Under the pieces are notes generated by a model, which saw only the letters and a list, made by a program, of their open reading frames with translations, ran no database searches and had not been told where the DNA came from. A DNA stretch of 64,000 nucleotides from Octopus sinensis (Eukaryota): NCBI RefSeq assembly GCF_006345805.1, contig NC_042997.1, positions 205,654,001 through 205,718,000 on the forward strand. Reading direction: 5' to 3'. Below are positions 39,590-56,539 of this stretch, in pieces (the first letter of the stretch is position 1; each line of letters starts with the position of its first letter). Both the position numbers and the translations under genes were made by a program.

Positions 39590-40665
39590 TGGGTATGGGC
39601 GTATGGTATCTACCATGTATATTTCCTATTTAGTATTAGGAAAGTTTCATTTATAAGGACGTACTCCCGTATTTGTCTGAGTGTTGGGTCTTTTGATTGC
39701 TTGGATGAGATGCGGATGTCAAGTTGACCCAAGTTGCCTCCATGATGGTCTTTGGGATGTTGGTAGAGTATGGAGGACTGCTTTTTGTTGTCATATTGTC
39801 TCAAATGTTCATTTAGTCTTTCAGCTATGCTCCTAGATGTCTCCCCTATGTACGTCATGTTCATGTCCTTACAGGCACCTTCTAAGCATCATATGCTGTA
39901 AACTACATTTCGAGTTCTACAGTTAATGCCAGCGTTAATCCTACATACCATGCAGTTATCATTGGTGCATATGGTATTCTTAAAGGGGTACGTCCTACAT
40001 AGTTATGATCTGACGGAGTTCCCTGGATTTTCAACAATCTTAATGTCGAGTTTGGTCTCCTTCAGAGCTTCCCTAAATCTACAGGCTAGTTCTCCATGGG
40101 ATTTGGCCTCTACAAACATCACTCCTTCATATTTATCACTTTTCTGCCATGTGTTCACCCCGTTTGCTTTGTCACAAGTGCTTTGTATCCTATTCCATTC
40201 TTTGTTTCTATATCTAGGGCAGCTACCACTGGTATCATTACGTATAATGTTATCAGATTTATTTCTAGCACCCCTGTACACTCGAACTCTATCTTTTTGA
40301 TCATATCCAGAGAACTGCATGCGGTGCATAAAGTTCTGTATGTGTTTTGTCGTTTCATAGGGTTCGCATAGTGGGGACACATTGTTCATTATTCTAATTA
40401 AGTCTGCTATCAGTATGGTTTAATTTCCTTGTTGTGTGAGAAAGGTGAGTTCTTCTGAACGACATAGTTTGAAGTTATGGGTTCCATGTAATAAGAGTGG
40501 AGGAGCTGCACTCTTTTGTTCACAGTCTCTAACCCAAGTTCAGTATCAAGTACAGGGAGTCCATTGTTGGGGTGCTTAGTGGGGTTTAATCTATAGTTAC
40601 CTTGATACTTTGGTGGATGGAGTTAGCTATTTGCTGGAGGCTCTCCATTACGTTCTTCTCAGTTT
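39590..40665 (-). mobile_element. Penelope-like remnant (duplicate of 28570-29640)
   Basis: Near-identical ORFs 39610-39864 and 40003-40389. Confidence 0.8.
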
Positions 40666-40960: not shown

Positions 40961-41921
40961 CTGAAAATTAACAAATATAAACATACATACATACACACAC
41001 ACAAACATACACATTTTCAATCATAAAGTCTGCTCTATTCTTTAGATTGTGCTTTGCATTCTGATATATGTTATATTGATAATTCATATATATATATATA
41101 TCTTAGCTGGGCATAAGAACCATCAGATGTGGTGTACAAGAGAGACAACTGCACACGACATCTGAAGAAGTTCCAATCTCTACCAGTGGGAGGAAGCTGT
41201 AGAAGAGGGAGGCCCAGGAAGACATGGAATGAGGTGCTTAAGCATAATCATCAAATGATGGGCCACATGGAAGCAATGACTAGTGACCGAGACATTTGGC
41301 GATATGTCATACTTGAGAAGACATATGGTCAAGGAATATGGCGACCTGGCAGCTGGAGTCTTAGAGTAGCTGTCCACCGAAGTTCCATATAATATGGGAA
41401 GGAAAAAGGAAAAGGAGGAAAATACAATGTTACTAAAACAAAGACACATTCACATGTAGACAAACAAATGGTTTGATTAGGGTATAATCAATTTGGCGAG
41501 GAAACTAAAGAGAAAATATTACGACGATGACCACCACAGATCTACAATGGAAGAATTCACCACGTGTAGTTGAGGGTAAAAGAAAACGTTGAACGACAGT
41601 AAGTACGTCCAAAATTTATAAAGCAGTGACATACATACATACATAGATACTTGTAGCAGACATGTATATACGTGCAGAGTGAAAAGAAATCACACTATTT
41701 AATGTGACGGACTACACTGCAAAAAATTAAAAAATCACTGATTTCATTTCTGTTTACAAACTTTCTCCGTGTCTACACTAAACATACGCACAAATCCTTT
41801 TATATATACACACGCAATATTTAAGAACAAAAGGAATATACACAAAAAAAGATCGAATTAAAAACAAATATTTTATATTTTACTTTTATCGTATTGTTGT
41901 TTACATTTTCTGTCTCTACGG

Positions 41922-43079
41922 ATGACCAGAAGCAACAGAATCGCCATGGTGGAATCCATAGCGGCGTGCGATAAGACTGGTCGCTGCTCCAAAATAGAAC
42001 ACTGCCCAGAAAATCACACCTGCCACATCTGTACGGAACCCGAAAATACGTTCCGTAATCGCTGGGTCGAATGTGGGACATGCCTCATCTCTGTCTGCCT
42101 CCAATGTGCCACGGACTTTCAGAAGATCCCAGGCCAAAAAAAGAGCCATCATAATGCTATGATGGATAGACTCTGGAAGATGGTTCAGCTTAAATCTTGG
42201 ACTTTTCAGTATCAGGCCTGCGCGCCTCCACAACCGACGATTGTGTCTCCCCCTGCCACTCCCGTGGAGGAGGCGGAACAGCAACAGCAGCAACAACAAA
42301 ATCAACCACAACTAGAGCAGCAGCAGCAGCAGCAACAACAACGACAGCAGCAACAACAAAATCAACCACAACCAGAGCAGCAGCAGCAACAACAGCAGCA
42401 ACAACAAAATCAACCACAACCAGAGCAGCAGCAGCAACAACAACAACACCAATTGACCAGTGCGGTTCTTGCAGAACTGCAACAATCGATCTGTGCTTTA
42501 AGAGGGGAAGTAGCAGGAATAAAAGCAACCATTCAGGTTGGACTCCACAATGAGGGGTCTTATCGGAATGCTCTGCTAAAGAACCTCCCTGTACCTGTAC
42601 CTCTTGTCGCATCTAAGACCGCGGATTCTGCTACCCATGAAGTCATTGCCATTGGGGTGCCTGAAGACATGGCTGATCTTCAGGCATTTGCTGCCAACTC
42701 AGCCAAAGACCTAGGCTGCGTTTCCCCAACGGGTGCTATCCGCCTTGGACGACCTGGCCCAAAACCTAGGCTCATCAAGCTGTCTTTTTCGGACCACACT
42801 GAGGCAACCTCTTACCATCTGGCCTCAGTTAAAGCTGGGCGTGAAAATCGGACCACCTTCCGAACACGCCCAGGCTTACCGTCCGATCTACGTCCGAAGC
42901 TACGTGTAGCGGCTTCCCTGAATAGGAACTCAGCTCTACAGGAAAGCTTCAGTCTTCGGGAAGATGGACAAATCTGGAGATTTGTCAAGACTGATGAAAC
43001 GTGGAAGAGAGATACCAGCTGGTCTGAGTGCTCTCTACCCACAATAACTAAAAAGACTACAGCAACTCAGGGAAACTAA
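41922..43079 (+). CDS. LINE ORF1 (Cys-rich finger, poly-Q repeats, coiled coil, RLG...RLIKLSF motif)
   Basis: 385-aa open ORF with CxxC pairs and RLGRPGPKPRLIKLSF. Confidence 0.85.
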   Translation: MTRSNRIAMVESIAACDKTGRCSKIEHCPENHTCHICTEPENTFRNRWVECGTCLISVCLQCATDFQKIPGQKKSHHNAMMDRLWKMVQLKSWTFQYQACAPPQPTIVSPPATPVEEAEQQQQQQQNQPQLEQQQQQQQQRQQQQQNQPQPEQQQQQQQQQQNQPQPEQQQQQQQHQLTSAVLAELQQSICALRGEVAGIKATIQVGLHNEGSYRNALLKNLPVPVPLVASKTADSATHEVIAIGVPEDMADLQAFAANSAKDLGCVSPTGAIRLGRPGPKPRLIKLSFSDHTEATSYHLASVKAGRENRTTFRTRPGLPSDLRPKLRVAASLNRNSALQESFSLREDGQIWRFVKTDETWKRDTSWSECSLPTITKKTTATQGN

Positions 43080-43135
43080 GCCAGGACAATCTGCCATCCT
43101 CCACACACCATCATAAACTGCGAGCAGGGTACAAA

Positions 43136-45901
43136 TTGTTGTCCTTAAATGCTCGCAGTTTATGCAACAAAATACATTTGTTCAACGCCTACGTCAGAAG
43201 TGTTGACCCTGACTTCATCACTGTCACGGAAACATGGGCGCATTCCTTACTCTGTGATGGGGTTTTCAACATCACGGGGTACAACCTCTTCCGTAAGGAC
43301 CGTACTAACCGCCGTGGTGGTGGTGTGATGGTCTACGTTCGTTCAAATTTTTTGGTAATTCCTTGTGCCGATTTGAACGAATCACAAGAAGAAGTTTTTT
43401 TCTGTGACGTACGTATGACCATGTCAACACTCCTGCTTGGCGTTGTTTATCGTCCCCCAAATTACCATCAGGACACACAGCTTTGCAACATCCTCCGAGC
43501 TGCAGCCAGGAAAACAGCCACTTATGTGTTTATTGCAGGCGATTTCAATCATCCTGAGATCGATTGGGAAACCTTCCGTTGGCCACAGAGTGCAAACGAT
43601 TTTGTTGAGCTTGTGCTGGACTCAAACTGGTCACAAGTAGTCACCTCTCCAACAAGAGGCGACAACACCTTGGACCTGCTCTTCACCACAACTCCTGAAG
43701 CGGTTATCAATTGCACTACGGAGGAACCTCTAGGTGACTCTGATCATGCTATGATCATCGCCAATCTGGCTCTTGCGGGCAACAAACACCTGAACCATCT
43801 CCAATCTGCTTCCTTCGATTGGAAGAGAGCAGATTGGAACCTGTACCACACTGAACTACAGCACCCAAACTGGCGTGAATTCTACAACTCTGGAGATGTG
43901 AATACTATACTCCAGAGTATCCTGGACTCAATATGGGCAGCATGTGCAGCATCAGTGCCACGTAAACAAAAAAAGAAGAACCGCCCCAAAAGGGCAATTT
44001 GGGAAACTTCAGCGGTCCGACTTGCCAGGAAGGAACGTCGGACTGCTGAACAGGAATACAAGTTGCATAAATCAGACACCAACAGGAAGAAGCGGAATAA
44101 ATCCTCCAACCATCTCAAGCAAGTGACAAAAAATGCAGTGCTTGAATTTGAACAGTGCATAGCAGCCAATCCTGACAGCAAGGTTTTCTGGAAATATGTG
44201 CATTCAAAGCAGAGACCTCACTCTCCAGTGGGCCCTCTTCGCAACCCTCACACGAACCAGATCACTGACGACCCCAAGGAATGCGCAGAACTCATTGCCG
44301 AGTGCTATGCAAACATATTCACTGTCGAAAGTCAAAATGTACCATCTTCACCATCACTAACAGCAAACTCCATAACAACTATGGAATTTACACCTGAAAT
44401 GCTGCGACGTCACCTTCAAAATAAGCGCAACTATGCCTCCCCTGGTCTCGATGGAGTTACATACCTGCTTCTCAAACGTGGCAGGCACTTCCTTTTACAC
44501 CAGCTTTCTATTTTCTTCCAGTACTGTCTCAACAATGGTGCTACTCCGGAGCAGTGGAAAACTGCCAGTGTCATTCCTCTGTTCAAAAAGGGTGACCGCA
44601 CATCACCTGTCAACTATCGCCCAGTCAGTCTCACTAGCTGTATTGCAAAACTGATGGAATCGTGTGTCAGAGAAACACTCTGGAACTTCTGGAGCTCTCA
44701 CAGTCTCATCCGACCCTCACAATATGGATTTGTCCCTAACTCCAGCTGCAGTGACCAGCTTGTCGAGTTCCTTGAGGACATTACTCAGATCACTGACAGT
44801 GGCTCATGGGTGGATGTTGTCTACCTTGACTTTGCTAAGGCTTTCAACTCTGTGCCACACAAAAGGCTTATGGTGAAACTCTCTGCAATGGGTGTGGGGG
44901 ATGACCTTTTTAACTGGTTGAAATCCTTCATCCTCAGCCGAAAGGAGGTAGTCACAGTTCTAGGACAGCACTCTACACCATATGAGATGTCATCGGGTGT
45001 ACCACAGGGATCTGTCCTTGGTCCCCTCCTGTTTGTGGCATACATTAATGACATAGATGCCAATTTAAAGAATGCCACAGTATTGAAATATGCAGACGAC
45101 ATCAAGCTGTACCTTGAAATCAAGAGGACTGATCCTGATGTCTACAACTCTTTCCTGCAATCAGACCTAGACACAATGCAGCAATGGATCACAGACTGGC
45201 AACTGAAACTGGCTGTGGACAAGTGTACCACCATGCATTTTGGGAGAAAAAACCCTGCGTCCACATACTCCCTTCACAACACTGATATCAAGAAATCCTC
45301 TTGCGAGCGTGACCTAGGCATCACTGTCAGCAGTGATTTGCGTTGGACAAAGCATATCTCTAAAATTGTCAAGAAGGCCGAGGGTGTCTTGGCATCACTC
45401 AGCAAGACTTTTGTTAGCCGCTCTCCAGCCATCTATTTAAAACTGTATACAGCTATGGTACGACCACACTTGGAATTCGCATCATCAGTTTGGAATCCCT
45501 ATCTTGCTCAGAACATTGACCTCCTGGAATCTGTCCAGAGACGTGCAACCAAACGCATACCCTCCATCAGACACCTACCATATTCTGAGCGCCTTGTTTC
45601 CCTGGGCATGGATTCACTGAAGCTCCGGCGTCTGGCGACGGACTTGGTAAGCACCCACAAAGTTATCAACCACCTCACCAACAACAACACTGAACACCTT
45701 TTTGATCTCCATGTGTCTAACACACGTGGACATGCCTACAAAGTCAGAAAACAGCACAGCTCCCATGACTTTCGGAAACATTTTTTCACGCTCAGGGTTG
45801 CTGAAGCGTGGAATAAACTGCCTGCATCAGTTGTTGACTGCCATGACACTGCATCCTTTAAGGCCCTCATGCTTCCCGAAATCCGTCGAAACTACACCTG
45901 A
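43136..45901 (+). CDS. LINE ORF2 (APE + RT), no AUG at the start
   Basis: LNARSL, VTETW, YRPP, GDFN, SDH, YLDFAKAF, SGVPQGSVLGP, YADD, TRGH, WNKLP; 921 codons uninterrupted. Confidence 0.95.
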   Translation: MLSLNARSLCNKIHLFNAYVRSVDPDFITVTETWAHSLLCDGVFNITGYNLFRKDRTNRRGGGVMVYVRSNFLVIPCADLNESQEEVFFCDVRMTMSTLLLGVVYRPPNYHQDTQLCNILRAAARKTATYVFIAGDFNHPEIDWETFRWPQSANDFVELVLDSNWSQVVTSPTRGDNTLDLLFTTTPEAVINCTTEEPLGDSDHAMIIANLALAGNKHLNHLQSASFDWKRADWNLYHTELQHPNWREFYNSGDVNTILQSILDSIWAACAASVPRKQKKKNRPKRAIWETSAVRLARKERRTAEQEYKLHKSDTNRKKRNKSSNHLKQVTKNAVLEFEQCIAANPDSKVFWKYVHSKQRPHSPVGPLRNPHTNQITDDPKECAELIAECYANIFTVESQNVPSSPSLTANSITTMEFTPEMLRRHLQNKRNYASPGLDGVTYLLLKRGRHFLLHQLSIFFQYCLNNGATPEQWKTASVIPLFKKGDRTSPVNYRPVSLTSCIAKLMESCVRETLWNFWSSHSLIRPSQYGFVPNSSCSDQLVEFLEDITQITDSGSWVDVVYLDFAKAFNSVPHKRLMVKLSAMGVGDDLFNWLKSFILSRKEVVTVLGQHSTPYEMSSGVPQGSVLGPLLFVAYINDIDANLKNATVLKYADDIKLYLEIKRTDPDVYNSFLQSDLDTMQQWITDWQLKLAVDKCTTMHFGRKNPASTYSLHNTDIKKSSCERDLGITVSSDLRWTKHISKIVKKAEGVLASLSKTFVSRSPAIYLKLYTAMVRPHLEFASSVWNPYLAQNIDLLESVQRRATKRIPSIRHLPYSERLVSLGMDSLKLRRLATDLVSTHKVINHLTNNNTEHLFDLHVSNTRGHAYKVRKQHSSHDFRKHFFTLRVAEAWNKLPASVVDCHDTASFKALMLPEIRRNYT

Positions 45902-48033
45902 TTATATATACACTTTAGATGAGTTGTAGTGCACCTGAGCACTGTACACAATTATTATTATTATTATTATTATATCAAGCCAAATGAAATCATAGCTGTG
46001 GTCTTTGTAGGTGTCACCTACATGCCAGCCATGCCAGTCTCACGTAAAAAGTACCATTTGGGGGTTGTGCCTCATAGAGGCCATGTGGTTGATGCTGGCA
46101 TCATGTATCTAGCATCCATGCTGGTGGTAAATAAAAGCAGCCATTACATTGGTGGTTAGGAAAGGTATCCAGCTGTAGAAACCATACCATGTCAGACTGG
46201 AGTCTGGTGTAGCCCCTCACCTTGCCAGCCCCAGTCAAACCGTCCAACCCATGCCAGCATGGACAATGGATGCTAAATGATGATGATCATGATGTACATA
46301 CGTATAGGCATGCCATCATCAGCATTATCCCCATCTACATTTCATGTCCATGCTGGCACAAGTTGAACAAAATGATATATAAAGACACATTTGTCACAGC
46401 AAAAGTCATGTCCAAAAACTGTGATATATATTCCTGCCCATGCTGGGCCTTACGCCCACATTTGCCCCTGTGAAGCATCCCCTTCACCACATCTCATCTT
46501 CCTAACACCCATCCCTCTATTATACTCTTCTAACTATGGTCCTACTTTACTGCTGTAACCATTTGAGAGCATTCATCACCACCCAAACCCTTTCATTAAT
46601 ACCAGTTGCATCTCTTTCATCATCATCTCCATCCATACAACCTTCCATCGATCATCCCTTTCTGTCCCTTCCCTAATCTTTCCCACCCACCCCTCTTAGC
46701 TACACCTTACTCTGCCAGGTTTCCTGTTGAACACTTCTCCTATCTGCAATCATTCTCAACACCCTCTCACAGCCATTGCTAATAATCCCTCCAATTTTCT
46801 GGCCCCACTCACTATAGCCACCCCCATGTATCTCTGACTCCCATCTCTTTCACACTTCATCATCTTTGCTTTCCCTCTGCTGTCAGATCCTGGTCTTCAT
46901 CTCTCTTCCTCCTCATCTATCAACAGATTGATGATTCTGCTGCTCTCCACCCTTCCTCTGAGGCTTCTTGTCACCTCCTCCTTTCCGAGCCCCGTCAGTC
47001 TCTCGACTCCACCTCAAACCATTGTTCCTCACTCTCTACAACCACCTCAAGCCCCATCTCTAACCTCTGCACTTTTCATCTCACACTCTGATGCCATTAC
47101 CCTCCCATTCCTTCTTTACTCATCCACAGTCTCCCTTATACTCCCCTTCTTGTAACTTGGGACTATGCTCTGGCACTCTATTACCACCATCTTTCTTCCT
47201 TCCAGATACTGTCATGCACCTTTGCATAAATATAAGGACGCCACGAGTCTCTCTAGATCTATGTGCTTAAGCCTCTGGCAAACTTTAGACTTTCTAGCCC
47301 TGGCCTCAAGCCACCTCCCCACTCCCCAGTTCCATCAGGGGCTTGCAAGATACTTGGTAACCTCACCAGTGCTGGTGCCATGAGAAAAGCAGGTTCCAGT
47401 CCACACTCTAAAATGGTTGGCATTATGTTGAGTATTCTAACTCTGAATATTCTTCGACCAAAGTAGATGGGGATGACAATGTGTTTGTCCCTTGCTAGGA
47501 TGGCCGTCCAGTTATTTTTGGTCTCCTCCTCTGAGACAGACCGCACTTTGACAGTCCCATATTTCTTTCTTTAACCTGGCTACGTAGGCTTTGCTTTTCT
47601 AAACTGCTTCTAGGTATTTCTCTATTTGCTGCTGTGTTGCCTGCTCCACTTCCCTACTTTTGACTTCAGTTGTTTTATATAGAACTGTCCACAAATTAAT
47701 TTTTTGCGGGGCCAGTTCTATGAATGTTTAATACCATTTTTCTGCTACATTTTGCACTCTTGAATTCATTTCCATCGATAAAAAATGTCTTCACTTAATT
47801 CTGTGGTTACTCTTGCAAAGTTGAAATTGTTACGACTAGATTTGCATGTCTCATTCTTCCTCATTTTCTCTCTCTCTCTCTCCTCTTGTTTTTCCTCTGC
47901 CTAGGTAACCAAATACCTCCTTCACACCAGCACACCAATTTATGGCCTCTTTTGCGTACCTCTTTCTCTGTCCCTCGGTAACCATGTCTCTCCTCTATAG
48001 CAAGACATTTCTCTCTGCTTATTTATTTCTCCG

Positions 48034-51000
48034 TCACAAACTAACATTTCATCATCTACTACTGGATCACCTCCTCCAATGCCCTCTCTGCTATGGCAAG
48101 ACCCCTCTTTCTGTCTCTCTGTCACACTCTAACATTTCATCATCTACTACTGGATCACCACCTCCAATGCCCTCTCTGTTATGGCAAGACCCCTCTTTCT
48201 GTCTCTCTGTCACACTCTAACATTTCATCATCTACTACTGGATCACCTCCTCCAATGCCCTCTCTGTTATGGCAAGACCCCTCTTTCTGTCTCTCTGTCA
48301 CACTCTAACATTTCATCATCTACTACTGGATCACCACCTCCAATGCCCTCTCTGTTATGGCAAGACCCCTCTTTCTGTCTCTCTGTCACACTCTAACATT
48401 TCATCATCTACTACTGGATCACCTCCTCCAATGCCCTCTCTGTTATGGCAAGACCCCTCTTTCTGTCTCTCTGTCACACTCTAACATTTCATCATCTACT
48501 ACTGGATCACCTCCTCCAATGCCCTCTCTGTTATGGCAAGACCCCTCTTTCTGTCTCTCTGTCACACTCTAACATTTCATCATCTACTACTGGATCACCT
48601 CCTCCAATGCCCTCTCTGTTATGGCAAGACCCCTCTTTCTGTCTCTCTGTCACACTCTAACATTTCATCATCTACTACTGGATCACCTCCTCCAATGCCC
48701 TCTCTGTTATGGCAAGACCCCTCTTTCTGTCTCTCTGTCACACTCTAACATTTCATCATCTACTACTGGATCACCTCCTCCAATGCCCTCTCTGTTATGG
48801 CAAGACCCCTCTTTCTGTCTCTCTGTCACATCTAACATTTCATCATCTACTACTGGATCACCACCTCCAATGTCCTCTCTGTTATGGCAAGACCCCTCTT
48901 TCTGTCTCTCTGTCACACTCTAACATTTCATCATCTACTACTGGATCACCTCCTCCAATGCCCTCTCTGTTATGGCAAGACCCCTCTTTCTGTCTCTCTG
49001 TCACACTCTAACCTTTCATCATCTACTACTGGATCACCTCCTCCAATGCCCTCTCTGTTATGGCAAGACCCCTCTTTCTGTCTCTCTGTCACACTCTAAC
49101 CTTTCATCAACTACTACTGGATCACCACCTCCAATGCCCTCTCTGTTATGGCAAGACCCCTCTTTCTGTCTCTCTGTCACACTCTAACATTTCATCATCT
49201 ACTACTGGATCACCTCCTCCAATGCCCTCTCTGTTATGGCAAGACCCCTCTTTCTGTCTCTCTGTCACACTCTAACCTTTCATCATCTACTACTGGATCA
49301 CCACCTCCAATGCCCTCTCTGTTATGGCAAGACCCCTCTTTCTGTCTCTCTGTCACACTCTAACATTTCATCATCTACTACTGGATCACCACCTCCAATG
49401 CCCTCTCTGTTATGGCAAGACCCCTCTTTCTGTCTCTCTGTCACACTCTAACATTTCATCATCTACTACTGGATCACCTCCTCCAATGCCCTCTCTGTTA
49501 TGGCAAGACCCCTCTTTCTGTCTCTCTGTCACACTCTAACCTTTCATCATCTACAACTGGATCACCACCTCAAATGCCCTCTCTGTTATGGCAAGACCCC
49601 TCTTTCTGTCTCTCTGTCACACTCTAACATTTCATCATCTACTACTGGATCACCTCCTCCAATGCCCTCTCTGTTATGGCAAGACCCCTCTTTCTGTCTC
49701 TCTGTCACACTCTAACATTTCATCATCTACTACTGGATCACCACCTCCAATGCCCTCTCTGTTATGGCAAGACCCCTCTTTCTGTCTCTCTGTCACACTC
49801 TAACATTTCATCATCTACTACTAGATCACCACCTCCAATGCCCTCTCTGTTATGGCAAGACCCCTCTTTCTGTCTCTCTGTCACACTCTAACATTTCATC
49901 ATCTACTACTGGATCACCTCCTCCAATGCCCTCTCTGTTATGGCAAGACCCCTCTTTCTGTCTCTGTCACACTCTAACATTTCATCATCTACTACTGGAT
50001 CACCTCCTCCAATGCCCTCTCTGTTATGGCAAGACTCCTCTTTCTGTCTCTCTTTCACACTCTAACATTTCATCATCTACTACTGGATCACCTCCTCCAA
50101 TGCCCTCTCTGTTATGGCAAGACCCCTCTTTCTGCCGCTCTGTCACACTCTAACATTTCATCATTTACTACTGGATCACCTCCTCCAATGCCCTCTCTGT
50201 TATGGCAAGACCCCTCTTTCTGTCTCTCTGTCACACTCTAACATTTCATCATCTACTACTAGATCACCTCCTCCAATGCCCTCTCTGTTATGGCAAGACC
50301 CCTCTTTCTGTCTCTCTGTCACACTCTAACATTTCATCATCTACTACTAGATCACAACCTCCAATGCCCTCTCTGTTATGGCAAGACCCCTCTTTCTGTC
50401 TCTCTGTCACACTCTAACATTTCATCATCTACTACTGGATCACCTCCTCCAATGCCCTCTCTGTTATGGCAAGACCCCTCTTTCTGTCTCTCTGTCACAC
50501 TCTAACCTTTCATCATCTACTACTGGATCACCTCCTCCAATGCCCTCTCTGTTATGGCAAGACCCCTCTTTCTGTCTCTCTGTCACACTCTAACCTTTCA
50601 TCAACTACTACTGGATCACCACCTCCAATGCCCTCTCTGTTATGGCAAGACCCCTCTTTCTGTCTCTTTGTCACACCCTAACATTTCATCATCTACTATT
50701 GGATCACCTCCTCCAATGCCCTCTCTGCTATGGCAAGACCCCTCTTTCTGTCTCTCTGTCACACTCTAACCTTTCATCATCTACTACTGGATCACCACCT
50801 CCAATGCCCTCTCTGTTATGGCAAGACCCCTCTTTCTGTCTCTCTGTCACACTCTAACATTTCATCATCTACTACTGGATCACCACATCCAATGCCCTCT
50901 CTCTTATGGCAAGACCCCTCTTTCTGTCTCTCTGTCACACTCTAACATTTCATCATCTACTACTGGATCACCTCCTCCAATGCCCTCTCTGTTATGGCAA

Positions 51001-54000
51001 GACCCCTCTTTCTGTCTCTCTGTCACACTCTAACCTTTCATCATCTACAACTGGATCACCACCTCCAATGCCCTCTCTGTTATGGCAAGACCCCTCTTTC
51101 TGTCTCTCTGTCACACTCTAACATTTCATCATCTACTACTGGATCACCTCCTCAAATGCCCTCTCTGTTATGGCAAGACCCCTCTTTCTGTCTCTCTGTC
51201 ACACACTAACATTTCATCATCTACTACTGGATCACCACCTCCAATGCCCTCTCTGTTATGGCAAGACCCCTCTTTCTGTCTCTCTGTCACACTCTAACAT
51301 TTCATCATCTACTACTGGATCACCTCCTCCAATGCCCTCTCTGTTATGGCAAGACCCCTCTTTCTGTCTCTCTGTCACACTCTAACATTTCATCATCTAC
51401 TACTAGATCACCACCTCCAATGCCCTCTCTGTTATGGCAAGACCCCTCTTTCTGTCTCTCTGTCACACTCTAACATTTCATCATCTACTACTGGATCACC
51501 TCCTCCAATGCCCTCTCTGTTATGGCAAGACCCCTCTTTCTGTCTCTCTGTCACACTCTAACCTTTCATCATCTACTACTGGATCACCTCCTCCAATGCC
51601 CTCTCTGTTATGGCAAGACCCCTCTTTCTGTCTCTCTGTCACACTCTAACCTTTCATCAACTACTACTGGATCACCACCTCCAATGCCCTCTCTGTTATG
51701 GCAAGACCCCTCTTTCTGTCTCTCTGTCACACTCTAACATTTCATCATCTACTATTGGATCACCTCCTCCAATGCCCTCTCTGCTATGGCAAGACCCTCT
51801 TTCTGTCTCTCTGTCACACTCTAACCTTTCATCATCGACTACTGGATCACCACCTCCAATGCCCTCTCTGTTATGGCAAGACCCCTCTTTCTGTCTCTCT
51901 GTCACACTCTAACATTTCATCATCTACTACTGGATCACCACCTCCAATGCCCTCTCTGTTATGGCAAGACCCCTCTTTCTGTCTCTCTGTCACACTCTAA
52001 CATTTCATCATCTACTACTGGATCACCTCATCCAATGCCCTCTCTGTTATGGCAAGACCCCTCTTTCTGTCTCTCTGTCACACTCTAACATTTCATCATC
52101 TACTACTGGATCACCACCTCCAATGCCCTCTCTGTTATGGCAAGACCCCTCTTTCTGTCTCTCTGTCACACTCTAACATTTCATCATCTACTGCTGGATC
52201 ACCTCCTCCAATGCCCTCTCTGTTATGGCAAGACCCCTCTTTCTGTCTCTCTGTCACACACTAACATTTCATCGTCTACTACTGGATCACCTCCTCCAAT
52301 GCCCTCTCTGCTATGGCAAGACCCCTCTTTCTGTCTCTCTGTCACACTCTAACATTTCATCGTCTACTACTGGATCACCACCTCCAATGCCCTCTCTGTT
52401 ATGGCAAGACCCCTCTTTCTGTCTCTCTGTCACACTCTAACATTTCATCATCTACTACTGGATCACATCCTCCAATGCCCTCTCTGTTATGGCAAGACCA
52501 CTCTTTCTGTCTCTCTGTCACACTCTTACCTTTCATCATCTACTACTGGATCACCACCTCCAATGCCCTCTCTGTTATGGCAAGACCCCTCTTTCTGTCT
52601 CTCTGTCACACTCTAACATTTCATCATCTACTACTGGATCACCTCCTCCAATGCCCTCTCTGTTATGGCAAGACCCCTCTTTCTGTCTCTCTGTCACACT
52701 CTAACATTTCATCATCTACTACTGGATCACCACCTCCAATGCCCTCTCTGTTATGGCAAGACCCCTCTTTCTGTCTCTCTGTCACACTCTAACATTTCAT
52801 CATCTACTACTGGATCACCTCCTCCAATGCCCTCTCTGTTATGGCAAGACCCCTCTTTCTGTCTCTCTGTCACACACTAACATTTCATCATCTACTACTG
52901 GATCACCTCCTCCAATGCCCTCTCTGTTATGGCAAGACCCCTCTTTCTGTCTCTCTGTCACACTCTAACCTTTCATCATCTACAACTGGATCACCACCTC
53001 CAATGCCCTCTCTGTTATGGCAAGACCCCTCTTTCTGTCTCTCTGTCACACTCTAACATTTCATCATCTACTACTGGATCACCTCCTCCAATGCCCTCTC
53101 TGTTATGGCAAGACCCCTCTTTCTGTCTCTCTGTCACACTCTAACATTTCATCATCTACTACTGGATCACCACCTCCAATGCCCTCTCTGTTATGGCAAG
53201 ACCCCTCTTTCTGTCTCTCTGTCACACTCTCACATTTCATCATCTACTACTGGATCACCTCCTCCAATGCCCTCTCTGTTATGGCAAGACCCCTCTTTCT
53301 GTCTCTCTGTCACACACTAACATTTCATCATCTACTACTAGATCACCACCTCCAATGCCCTCTCTGTTATGGCAAGACCCCTCTTTCTGTCTCTCTGTCA
53401 CACTCTCACATTTCATCATCTACTACTGGATCACCTCCTCCAATGCCCTCTCTCTTATGGCAAGACCCCTCTTTCTGTCTCTCTGTCACACTCTAACATT
53501 TCATCATCTACTACTAGATCACCACCTCCAATGCCCTCTCTGTTATGGCAAGACCCCTCTTTCTGTCTCTCTGTCACACTCTAACATTTCATCATCTACT
53601 ACTGGATCACCTCCTCCAATGCCCTCTCTGTTATGGCAAGACCCCTCTTTCTGTCTCTCTGTCACACTCTAACATTTCATCATCTACTACTGGATCACCT
53701 CCTCCAATGCCCTCTCTGTTATGGCAAGACCCCTCTTTCTGTCTCTCTGTCACACTCTAACATTTCATCATCTACTACTGGATCACCACCTCCAATGCCC
53801 TCTCTGTTATGGCAAGACCCCTCTTTCTGTCTCTCTGTCACACTCTAACATTTCATCATCTACTACTGGATCACCTCCTCCAATGCCCTCTCTGTTATGG
53901 CAAGACCCCTCTTTCTGTCTCTCTGTCACACACTAACATTTCATCATCTACTACTGGATCACCTCCTCCAATGCCCTCTCTGTTATGGCAAGACCCTCTT

Positions 54001-55886
54001 TCTGTCTCTCTGTCACACTCTAACCTTTCATCATCTACAACTGGATCACCACCTCCAATGCCCTCTCTGTTATGGCAAGACCCCTCTTTCTGTCTCTCTG
54101 TCACACTCTAACATTTCATCATCTACTACTGGATCACCTCCTCCAATGCCCTCTCTGTTATGGCAAGACCCCTCTTTCTGTCTCTCTGTCACACTCTAAC
54201 ATTTCATCATCTACTACTGGATCACCACCTCCAATGCCCTCTCTGTTATGGCAAGACCCCTCTTTCTGTCTCTCTGTCACACTCTCACATTTCATCATCT
54301 ACTACTGGATCACCTCCTCCAATGCCCTCTCTGTTATGGCAAGACCCCTCTTTCTGTCTCTCTGTCACACACTAACATTTCATCATCTACTACTAGATCA
54401 CCACCTCCAATGCCCTCTCTGTTATGGCAAGACCCCTCTTTCTGTCTCTCTGTCACACTCTCACATGTCATCATCTACTACTGGATCACCTCCTCCAATG
54501 CCCTCTCTCTTATGGCAAGACCCCTCTTTCTGTCTCTCTGTCACACTCTAACATTTCATCATCTACTACTAGATCACCACCTCCAATGCCCTCTCTGTTA
54601 TGGCAAGACCCCTCTTTCTGTCTCTCTGTCACACTCTAACATTTCATCATCTACTACTGGATCACCTCCTCCAATGCCCTCTCTGTTATGGCAAGACCCC
54701 TCTTTCTGTCTCTCTGTCACACTCTAACATTTCATCATCTACTACTGGATCACCTCCTCCAATGCCCTCTCTGTTATGGCAAGACCCCTCTTTCTGTCTC
54801 TCTGTCACACTCTAACCTTTCATCATCTACTACTGGATCACCTCCTCCAATGCCCTCTCTGTTATGGCAAGACCCCTCTTTCTGTCTCTCTGTCACACTC
54901 TAACCTTTCATCAACTACTACTGGATCACCACCTCCAATGCCCTCTCTGTTATGGCAAGACCCCTCTTTCTGTCTCTCTGTCACACTCTAACATTTCATC
55001 ATCTATTATTGGATCACCTCCTCCAATGCCCTCTCTGCTATGGCAAGACCCCTCTTTCTGTCTCTCTGCCACACTCTAACCTTTCATCATCTACTACTGG
55101 ATCACCACCTCCAATGCCCTCTCTGTTATGGCAAGACCCCTCTTTCTGTCTCTCTGTCACACTCTAACATTTCATCATCTACTACTGGATCACCTCCTCC
55201 AATGCCCTCTCTGTTATGGCAAGACCCCTCTTTCTGTCTCTCTGTCACACTCTAACCTTTCATCATCTACAACTGGATCACCACCTCCAATGCCCTCTCT
55301 GTTATGGCAAGACCCCTCTTTCTGTCTCTCTGTCACACTCTAACATTTCATCATCTACTACTGGATCACCTCATCCAATGCCCTCTCTGTTATGGCAAGA
55401 CCCCTCTTTCTGTCTCTCTGTCACACTCTAACATTTCATCATCTACTACTGGATCACCACCTCCAATGCCCTCTCTGTTATGGCAAGACCCCTCTTTCTG
55501 TCTCTCTGTCACACTCTAACATTTCATCATCTACTACTGGATCACCTACTCCAATGCCCTCTCTGTTATGGCAAGACCCCTCTTTCTGTCTCTCTGTCAC
55601 ACTCTAACATTTCATCATCTACTACTGGATCACCACCTCCAATGCCCTCTCTGTTATGGCAAGACCCCTCTTTCTGTCTCTCTGTCACACTCTAACATTT
55701 CATCATCTTCTACTGGATCACCTCCTCCAATGCCCTCTCTGCTATGGCAAGACCCCTCTTTCTGTCTCTCTGTCACACTCTAACCTTTCATCATCTACTA
55801 CTGGATCACCTCCTCCAATGCCCTCTCTGTTATGGCAAGACCCCTCTTTCTGTCTCTCTGTCACACTCTAACCTTTCATCATCTGA
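48034..55886. repeat. 88-bp satellite array, ~89 copies (unit 2)
   Basis: Same monomer as 32364-32826; ORF-track periodicity is 88 nt. Confidence 0.98.
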
Positions 55887-56539
55887 CACAAGCTCTCCTC
55901 TTGCCCCTCTCATAATTCATTATCTTGGTGACCCTGCCAGCACTGGTGCCATGTAAAAAGCATCCACTGCACACTGTGAAATGGCTTGCATTTGGAAGGG
56001 CATCTAGCTGCAAAAATAATGCCAAAACTAACTTTGTTGTGCTAGTTCCACGTAAAATGTACTGAGTCCACTCTGTTGAGTGGTTGGTGTTAGGAAGTGC
56101 ATCCAGCTGTAAAATTCCTGCCAAAACGGACACAGTAGCGAAGGGTAGTTATTTTCCACCTTTCCGGCTCCTGTCAACTGTCCAATCCATGCATGCTTAG
56201 AAAACAGATGTTAAACGATGATGATGATGATGTTGGCAGTGGTACTGGCAAACCTGCTGCTGCCACCAGCATGGCAGCTGTTTTCTCGCTGTTGTTGTCA
56301 CTTTTTCTCATTAATTTCTTTTGTTCCTGTGATGGTGAAATGGGATGACAGAAGCAAGGCAAAATCGCTTTCCTAGGCCTCACATGCACTATTGTTGATG
56401 TTGTTGTTGCTTTTAAGACTTGGCTGTTCTCTCTTCTGGGGGACCAGCTCTTCTTTTCAATGGATGAACAATTCTCGTTCCCCACCCTTGTTTTTTAGCC
56501 CAAACAATTACCAGAATGGCCCCTAAAGGCTACACATGT

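Follow-up and report, generated by a model that had tools for sequence, protein, structure and literature searches.

A full-length copy of a long interspersed nuclear element (LINE) in Octopus sinensis probably produces its second protein by -1 ribosomal frameshifting, on a G GGA AAC slippery heptamer at the end of its first open reading frame (ORF), which would yield an ORF1-ORF2 fusion. The copy lies on the forward strand at 41800..45971 of a 64,000-nucleotide stretch of contig NC_042997.1 (GCF_006345805.1, positions 205,654,001 to 205,718,000), called the window here and numbered from its first letter. Its 5' end is approximate, other copies beginning to align at 41800-41803, and it closes with an (ATT)n 3' tail at 45951..45971. 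An APE endonuclease and a reverse transcriptase (RT) are encoded in ORF2, copies are dispersed and subject to 5' truncation, the tail is a simple repeat and there is no long terminal repeat (LTR), all as in a LINE. ORF2 matches human L1 ORF2p at E 6e-18, and the best named relatives are bird proteins called uncharacterized or jockey-like, at 31% identity. We take the element to belong to the CR1 group, a label based on motifs and not on a tree with named clade references.

ORF1 encodes 385 amino acids from an ATG at 41922 to 43079, within a frame open over 41862-43079. The ORF2 frame, in the -1 register, is open for 949 amino acids over 43052..45901, with matches to PF03372, PF14529 and PF00078, and the two frames overlap by 28 nt at 43052..43079. 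The final codons of ORF1, CAG GGA AAC TAA (43068-43079), place the heptamer at 43070..43076 in X_XXY_YYZ register within the -1 overlap, adjoining the UAA stop at 43077..43079, and it is the predicted shift site. Canonical heptamers occur in frame 10 times per 1308 codons of the element, so the chance of meeting one at the last ORF1 codon is below 1%, and of meeting one anywhere in the overlap about 7%. The endonuclease spans about 43142-43747 and the RT about 44591-45277. The first in-frame AUG of ORF2 is residue 93 (43328..43330), downstream of the Glu of the TETW motif (residue 60, 43229..43231), which aligns with E43 of human L1 ORF2p. E43 is catalytic, and a start at residue 93 would remove its equivalent. 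The AUG that SART1-type stop-start coupling would have in the ORF2 frame, overlapping or adjoining the ORF1 stop, is absent, the AUGs at 43149, 43162, 43234 and 43257 being out of frame; the downstream ORF lacks a usable AUG of its own, with non-AUG starts still conceivable. An earlier note on this DNA had described the heptamer and its register, a -1 frame open from 43052 and a first ATG near 43328 behind the endonuclease motifs, and the coordinates and codons agree with it at each place.

Comparison among close relatives shows that nucleotide conservation at the junction exceeds what the proteins need. The copy is intact and belongs to a young family, family A, with at least 148 exact flank matches at the junction in the host genome. 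Among 100 listed copies, 95 have GGGAAACTAA, the heptamer with its stop, intact, although identity among family A copies indicates recent copying only. The host genome also has a sister family, B, with 81% identity in the endonuclease and differences at 134 of 346 four-fold sites; its junctions retain GGGAAACTAA in that register as well. The pattern search for family B fixed most of the heptamer, and its counts are no measure of conservation. A more remote relative is the metagenome locus L217, placed beside the window's copy with SH-aLRT 99 by a quick tree, with identities of 50% in ORF1 and 57% in the endonuclease. Differences at 35 of 52 four-fold sites are near saturation in L217, and its ORF1 ends CAG GGA AAC TAG, again in -1 register, with UAG as the stop. 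The heptamer and stop are thus kept in family B and L217 while flanking letters change. The codon before GGA in families A and B may be CAG, CTG, ATG, TTG or TCG (Q, L, M or S), its third-position G constant, with copy counts for these codons that may include one locus twice. When the host genome was searched for further families with five proteins, its own or from elsewhere, families A and B headed the matches, and the 15 odd-looking loci inspected, of 16 fetched, were all family B junctions.

A wider set of ORF1 proteins carries patterns that would be expected of footprints of G GGA AAC, G GAA AAC and A AAA AAC. From a profile search came 116 sequences, each representing a 50% cluster; the 104 with a conserved end motif were used and the 12 without it left out. 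These relatives are known as protein only, their codons inferred and not read. Their variable tails contain GN (78), EN (13) or KN (5) in 96 of 104 cases, compared with a mean of 13.5 and a maximum of 26 for GN in shuffled tails. GN lies 2-36 residues past the end motif and 0-23 before the stop. The residue before it is never one without a G-ending codon (D, N, H, C, F, Y or I; 0 of 78, 17% expected, P 3e-7), while the same test in the protein body finds 8 of 37 GN after such a residue. A stop follows GN directly in 14 of 78, and in the other 64 there are 1-23 further residues, which makes the signal independent of the stop; in 48 of these 64, GN is followed by G, E, D, A or V, residues with G-starting codons. 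The EN and KN tails have fitting neighbors in 13 of 13 and 5 of 5. As a separate protein-level observation, the bird protein P0015 has FKL 39 residues before its first endonuclease motif, which corresponds to a -1 reading of U UUA AAC plus stop.

Codons could be read directly in more distant LINEs, represented by 80 metagenome loci, the best among 253, which have 29-57% identity and form 45 clusters at 70%. Of the 25 clusters whose overlap is -1, 16 place a canonical heptamer in register, compared with 3 and 2 for the two remaining registers, and none occurs in the 8 clusters whose overlap is +1. Because many of these sites fall in protein motifs (AKNL, ENF), synonymous codons were resampled: 16 of 24 clusters (one 4-nt overlap dropped) have the heptamer where 6.1 are expected, with a P of 3e-6 that, like the other P value here, overstates independence, since the clusters share ancestry in a quick tree. 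Relaxed first triplets, taken from PMC5009743 (here and below, cited articles are used in excerpt), raise this to 22 of 24 against 9.7 expected, for a set picked after GGA AAA C sites had been seen. KN, GN or EN is spelt as a heptamer in 20 of 25 cases inside overlaps and in 14 of 198 outside, a count made in 27 of 31 clusters (L294, L295, L296 and L304 left out). In these distant LINEs the heptamer may precede the ORF1 stop by as much as 259 nt, and nothing closes the -1 frame in between. A blind junction rule was applied to 89 loci (the 80 plus 9 of 17 extra) in 53 clusters, with 17 loci unclear and 2 at contig edges; it assigned a -1 junction to 31 clusters, 26 of them with a heptamer. Conservation of heptamer and frame, which the earlier note had named as a check, therefore extends from family copies to the sister family, L217, about 100 ORF1 relatives at the protein level and distant LINEs.

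In two loci of the distant set with -1 overlaps but no canonical heptamer, L250 and L304, G GGG GAA stands at the position of the ENF site and is a non-canonical candidate. A further pattern, GUGGUAGG, occurs exactly 12 nt past the heptamer in 14 of 15 loci chosen for this type (L218, L219, L221, L224, L229, L230, L232, L239, L243, L253, L254, L266, L282 and L289), with fixed Val codons, and with one change in L259; it is a candidate stimulator or may reflect a constraint in the -1 frame. The contigs L297-L313 are animal-type LINE sequences that were binned with bacterial and archaeal genomes, probably through contamination, and none of 47 candidates was a viral contig.

Several observations weigh against frameshifting, in addition to the shared ancestry of the clusters, the after-the-fact choice of relaxed triplets and the protein-only state of the ORF1 relatives. 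No conserved structure was found 5-9 nt past the heptamer, where one is seen only in L217, L220 and L236, and no pairing of the 3' tail behind the shift site was found (rank 55 of 276 and 135 of 283). No heptamer is present in 5 of the 31 -1 clusters, and 11 of the 31 include a member with an in-frame AUG at least 8 codons before the first motif. L217 itself has an in-frame AUG 2 codons before the first ORF2 motif. The earlier note had proposed a retrovirus-style frameshift fusion: comparative evidence supports the -1 shift, while the conserved 3' stimulator of such systems was not found, in keeping with that note's own remark that no clear pseudoknot follows the heptamer.

The usual spacer between heptamer and structure is 5-9 nt, and in one case a nearby stop matters (PMC5009743). 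Over +4..+55, the A and B lineages are unstructured (z -1.0 to +1.8), and L217 has a hairpin at +6 (z -3.5). Structure over 51 heptamer sites averages z -0.35, with 7 below -2. L220 and L236 each have U UUU UUA, followed at canonical spacing by a clear H-type pseudoknot in the former and a hairpin in the latter. A 15-bp hairpin at 43112..43164, found in addition to what the earlier note had seen, is specific to family A (z -7.9, compared with -0.7 to +1.0 in B and -0.4 in L217). It was rejected as a stimulator, being too far from the heptamer at 35 nt, absent in B and L217, and only second of 116 windows scanned; the top one is another strong hairpin, at 43791-43860 inside ORF2 (z -5.9). A possible weak pseudoknot arm at 43083..43090, starting at +7 and pairing with 43138-43145 in the hairpin loop, was likewise rejected as within chance, with 40-260 of 300 shuffles as good. 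Its 8 pairs form in the window's allele alone, G at 43085 being present in 25 of 100 listed copies, and elsewhere pairing involves 6-9 of 12 positions and is interrupted by an internal mismatch.

The heptamer at the end of ORF1, with ORF2 one base back and lacking an early AUG, suggests that a few ribosomes slip. The majority would terminate at UAA, releasing ORF1p. The slipping ribosomes would move back one base on the heptamer, read CUA (43076-43078) as the next codon and cross an 18-codon linker into the endonuclease, giving a predicted fusion of about 1326 amino acids. The outcome would be much ORF1p and little ORF2 enzyme, with the enzyme tethered to ORF1p. G_GGA_AAC is among the most shift-prone heptamers (PMC5009743). 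Because a conserved stimulator was not found, we propose a low slip rate on the heptamer itself, perhaps aided by the adjacent stop or by lineage-specific hairpins.

An unlikely alternative, though the strongest of those weighed, is termination-reinitiation, in which ribosomes would restart after UAA at a nearby non-AUG codon and make separate proteins. The ORF1 stop and the ORF2 start are adjacent in this LINE, near-cognate in-frame codons precede the first motif (CUA at 43076, CUG at 43091 or 43118, UUG at 43136), and a dependence of ORF2 translation on ORF1 translation is described for mammalian L1 and silkworm SART1 (PMC2881922, PMC3708506). For mammalian L1, moreover, initiation of ORF2 is believed not to depend on its AUG (PMC5009743), a further point against frameshifting, and the failure to find a stimulator also favors a restart. 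Reinitiation would account for the missing AUG; it leaves unexplained why the heptamer is fixed, why it holds one register and why it does not depend on the stop: GN lies away from the stop in most ORF1 relatives, distant heptamers lie far upstream of it, and none of the near-cognate codons past the stop is kept in L217. It is much less probable still that [SQ]-G-N is a conserved peptide at the end of ORF1p, with the heptamer as by-product and ORF2 made in some other way. S or Q does precede 61 of the 78 GN, in proteins that come without DNA, and a peptide motif or shared descent could give this, which also counts against frameshifting. Wherever DNA was read, however, the codons are always G GGA AAC, though the preceding residue varies; EN and KN replace GN complete with fitting neighbors; the excess of G-starting codons after GN is a pattern of nucleotides; and heptamer spelling is concentrated inside overlaps.

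We give slightly less credence again to a joining of the frames in RNA, either by polymerase slippage that adds a base or by a splice that places ORF2 behind ORF1 or behind an upstream AUG. The letters CAG|G at 43068-43071 look like a splice acceptor, but family B has no AG at the corresponding place. A frame-fusing GGGG form, present in 22 of 72 family B matches, was considered as a natural in-frame fusion lineage and rejected, as all 11 loci examined represent a single truncated copy that sits within an RTE-like element, and its flank recurs at a GGG locus. An added base is present in none of the 100 listed family A copies. Contigs from 4 presumed-RNA runs, whose RNA nature is a guess and in which rare variants are lost, show no joint or indel at the junction, and three single contigs bridge it unbroken. 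Apart from this question, the 5'-truncated family B copy, nested in the RT region of the RTE-like element, has been amplified as a composite at at least 12 places in the host genome (L188-L193, L195, L199, L202 and L212-L214), mostly with GGGG at the junction and once with GGG.

Junctions other than -1 were also found in the distant set. Same-frame junctions have UGA-C in 8 of 8 clusters, 7 of them UGA-CU, against a background of 0.08; a single UGA-C junction, a leaky-stop context, was recorded in L246, L252, L261, L267, L297-L300, L303 and L305. In the 9 clusters with a +1 junction, UUU-C lies 6-18 nt upstream of the stop in 4, another 3 seem to be broken -1 copies and 2 have neither. The UUU-C junctions (UCC UUU CG, CCU UUU CGU, CCC UUU CCA) are in L249, L265, L272, L273 and L278-L281, and presumably resemble a viral +1 motif. 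UGA-C and UUU-C are candidates for other fusion-making signals. We lean slightly toward the view that CR1-group LINEs widely use a gag-pol logic, in which ORF2 would be translated as an extension of ORF1p, lineages would swap three recoding routes (-1 slippage on a bare heptamer, read-through at UGA-C and +1 slippage on UUU-C) and the slip site would move along ORF1 while the fusion is kept.

ORF1p has a Cys/His-rich N-terminus, Gln-rich repeats, a predicted coiled coil, an RRM plus CTD and a disordered tail ending in QGN. A structure model of its C-terminal 179 amino acids (pLDDT 84) shows the RRM plus CTD, and its closest fold match is human L1 ORF1p (E 8e-5, TM 0.40), which identifies it as an RNA-binding-type ORF1. 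An ORF1 model built from 3 sequences reached a pLDDT of only 42, Atlas structure matches were all below 0.9, and a structure search with the APE domain alone gave no useful match. PHD matches were weak and present in 2 of 15 ORF1 relatives. A PHD together with a type II ORF1 is described for CR1 subgroup 5 and L2 subgroup 6 (PMC4120745), and the architecture of ORF1p fits one or other of these, sharing the Cys/His-rich N-terminus, coiled coil, RRM and CTD as well as an APE-RT ORF2. This is a match by architecture and not by tree; the main text of PMC4120745 does not contain the words "frameshift" or "overlap".

Known -1 sites of viral or LTR-derived origin share a canonical in-register heptamer, a short -1 overlap and a startless polymerase gene after a structural gene (PMC5009743). 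The system here differs in being non-LTR, in having no conserved pseudoknot or stem at 5-9 nt and no protease that would free the enzyme, and in being known from sequence alone. Among APE-type non-LTR elements, TRE5-A and TRE3-A of Dictyostelium are stated to need a -1 frameshift for ORF2 (PMC5911963), in a single sentence without slippery site or experiment, and they belong to another lineage and another host kingdom. For Paramecium non-LTR Groups 1-3, +1 frameshifting, reinitiation or read-through was suggested for ORF2 (PMC5405496); these resemble the +1 and UGA-C relatives described above, but form a separate ciliate clade for which the cited part proposes no -1 shift. L1 and SART1 have a bicistronic RNA, as this LINE does, and ORF2 dependent on ORF1 translation (PMC2881922, PMC3708506, PMC5009743), and L1 also shares the RRM-CTD fold of ORF1p. 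In both, ORF2 begins with an AUG and reinitiation yields separate proteins, whereas this LINE has no such AUG and a conserved slip site. The main text of PMC13343379 does not contain "frameshift", "overlap" or "slippery". Searches of full-text literature, not including older subscription papers and Repbase, found no description of -1 frameshifting in CR1-group LINEs. A short ORF overlap in turtle CR1 was reportedly noted in 1997, and a frameshift may therefore have been suggested earlier.

Elsewhere in the window, 47900-56000 is taken up by a long tandem array whose repeat unit measures about 88 nt and which has a strong C-over-G skew. On the minus strand at 39610-40419 are broken frames like those of a GIY-YIG/RT element, which we take to be Penelope-like from their motifs.

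The translation of ORF2 in LINEs is a problem of long standing, for which the answers to date come mainly from L1 and SART1 and invoke reinitiation. Under the gag-pol view, the enzyme would enter the particle through the coiled coil of ORF1p, unlike in L1. The predicted fusion would alter the view of particle assembly, protein ratio and cis-preference in a LINE group that is very common. A heptamer able to function with no conserved stimulator would be of interest to the recoding field, and annotations that start such ORF2s at the first AUG would truncate the endonuclease.

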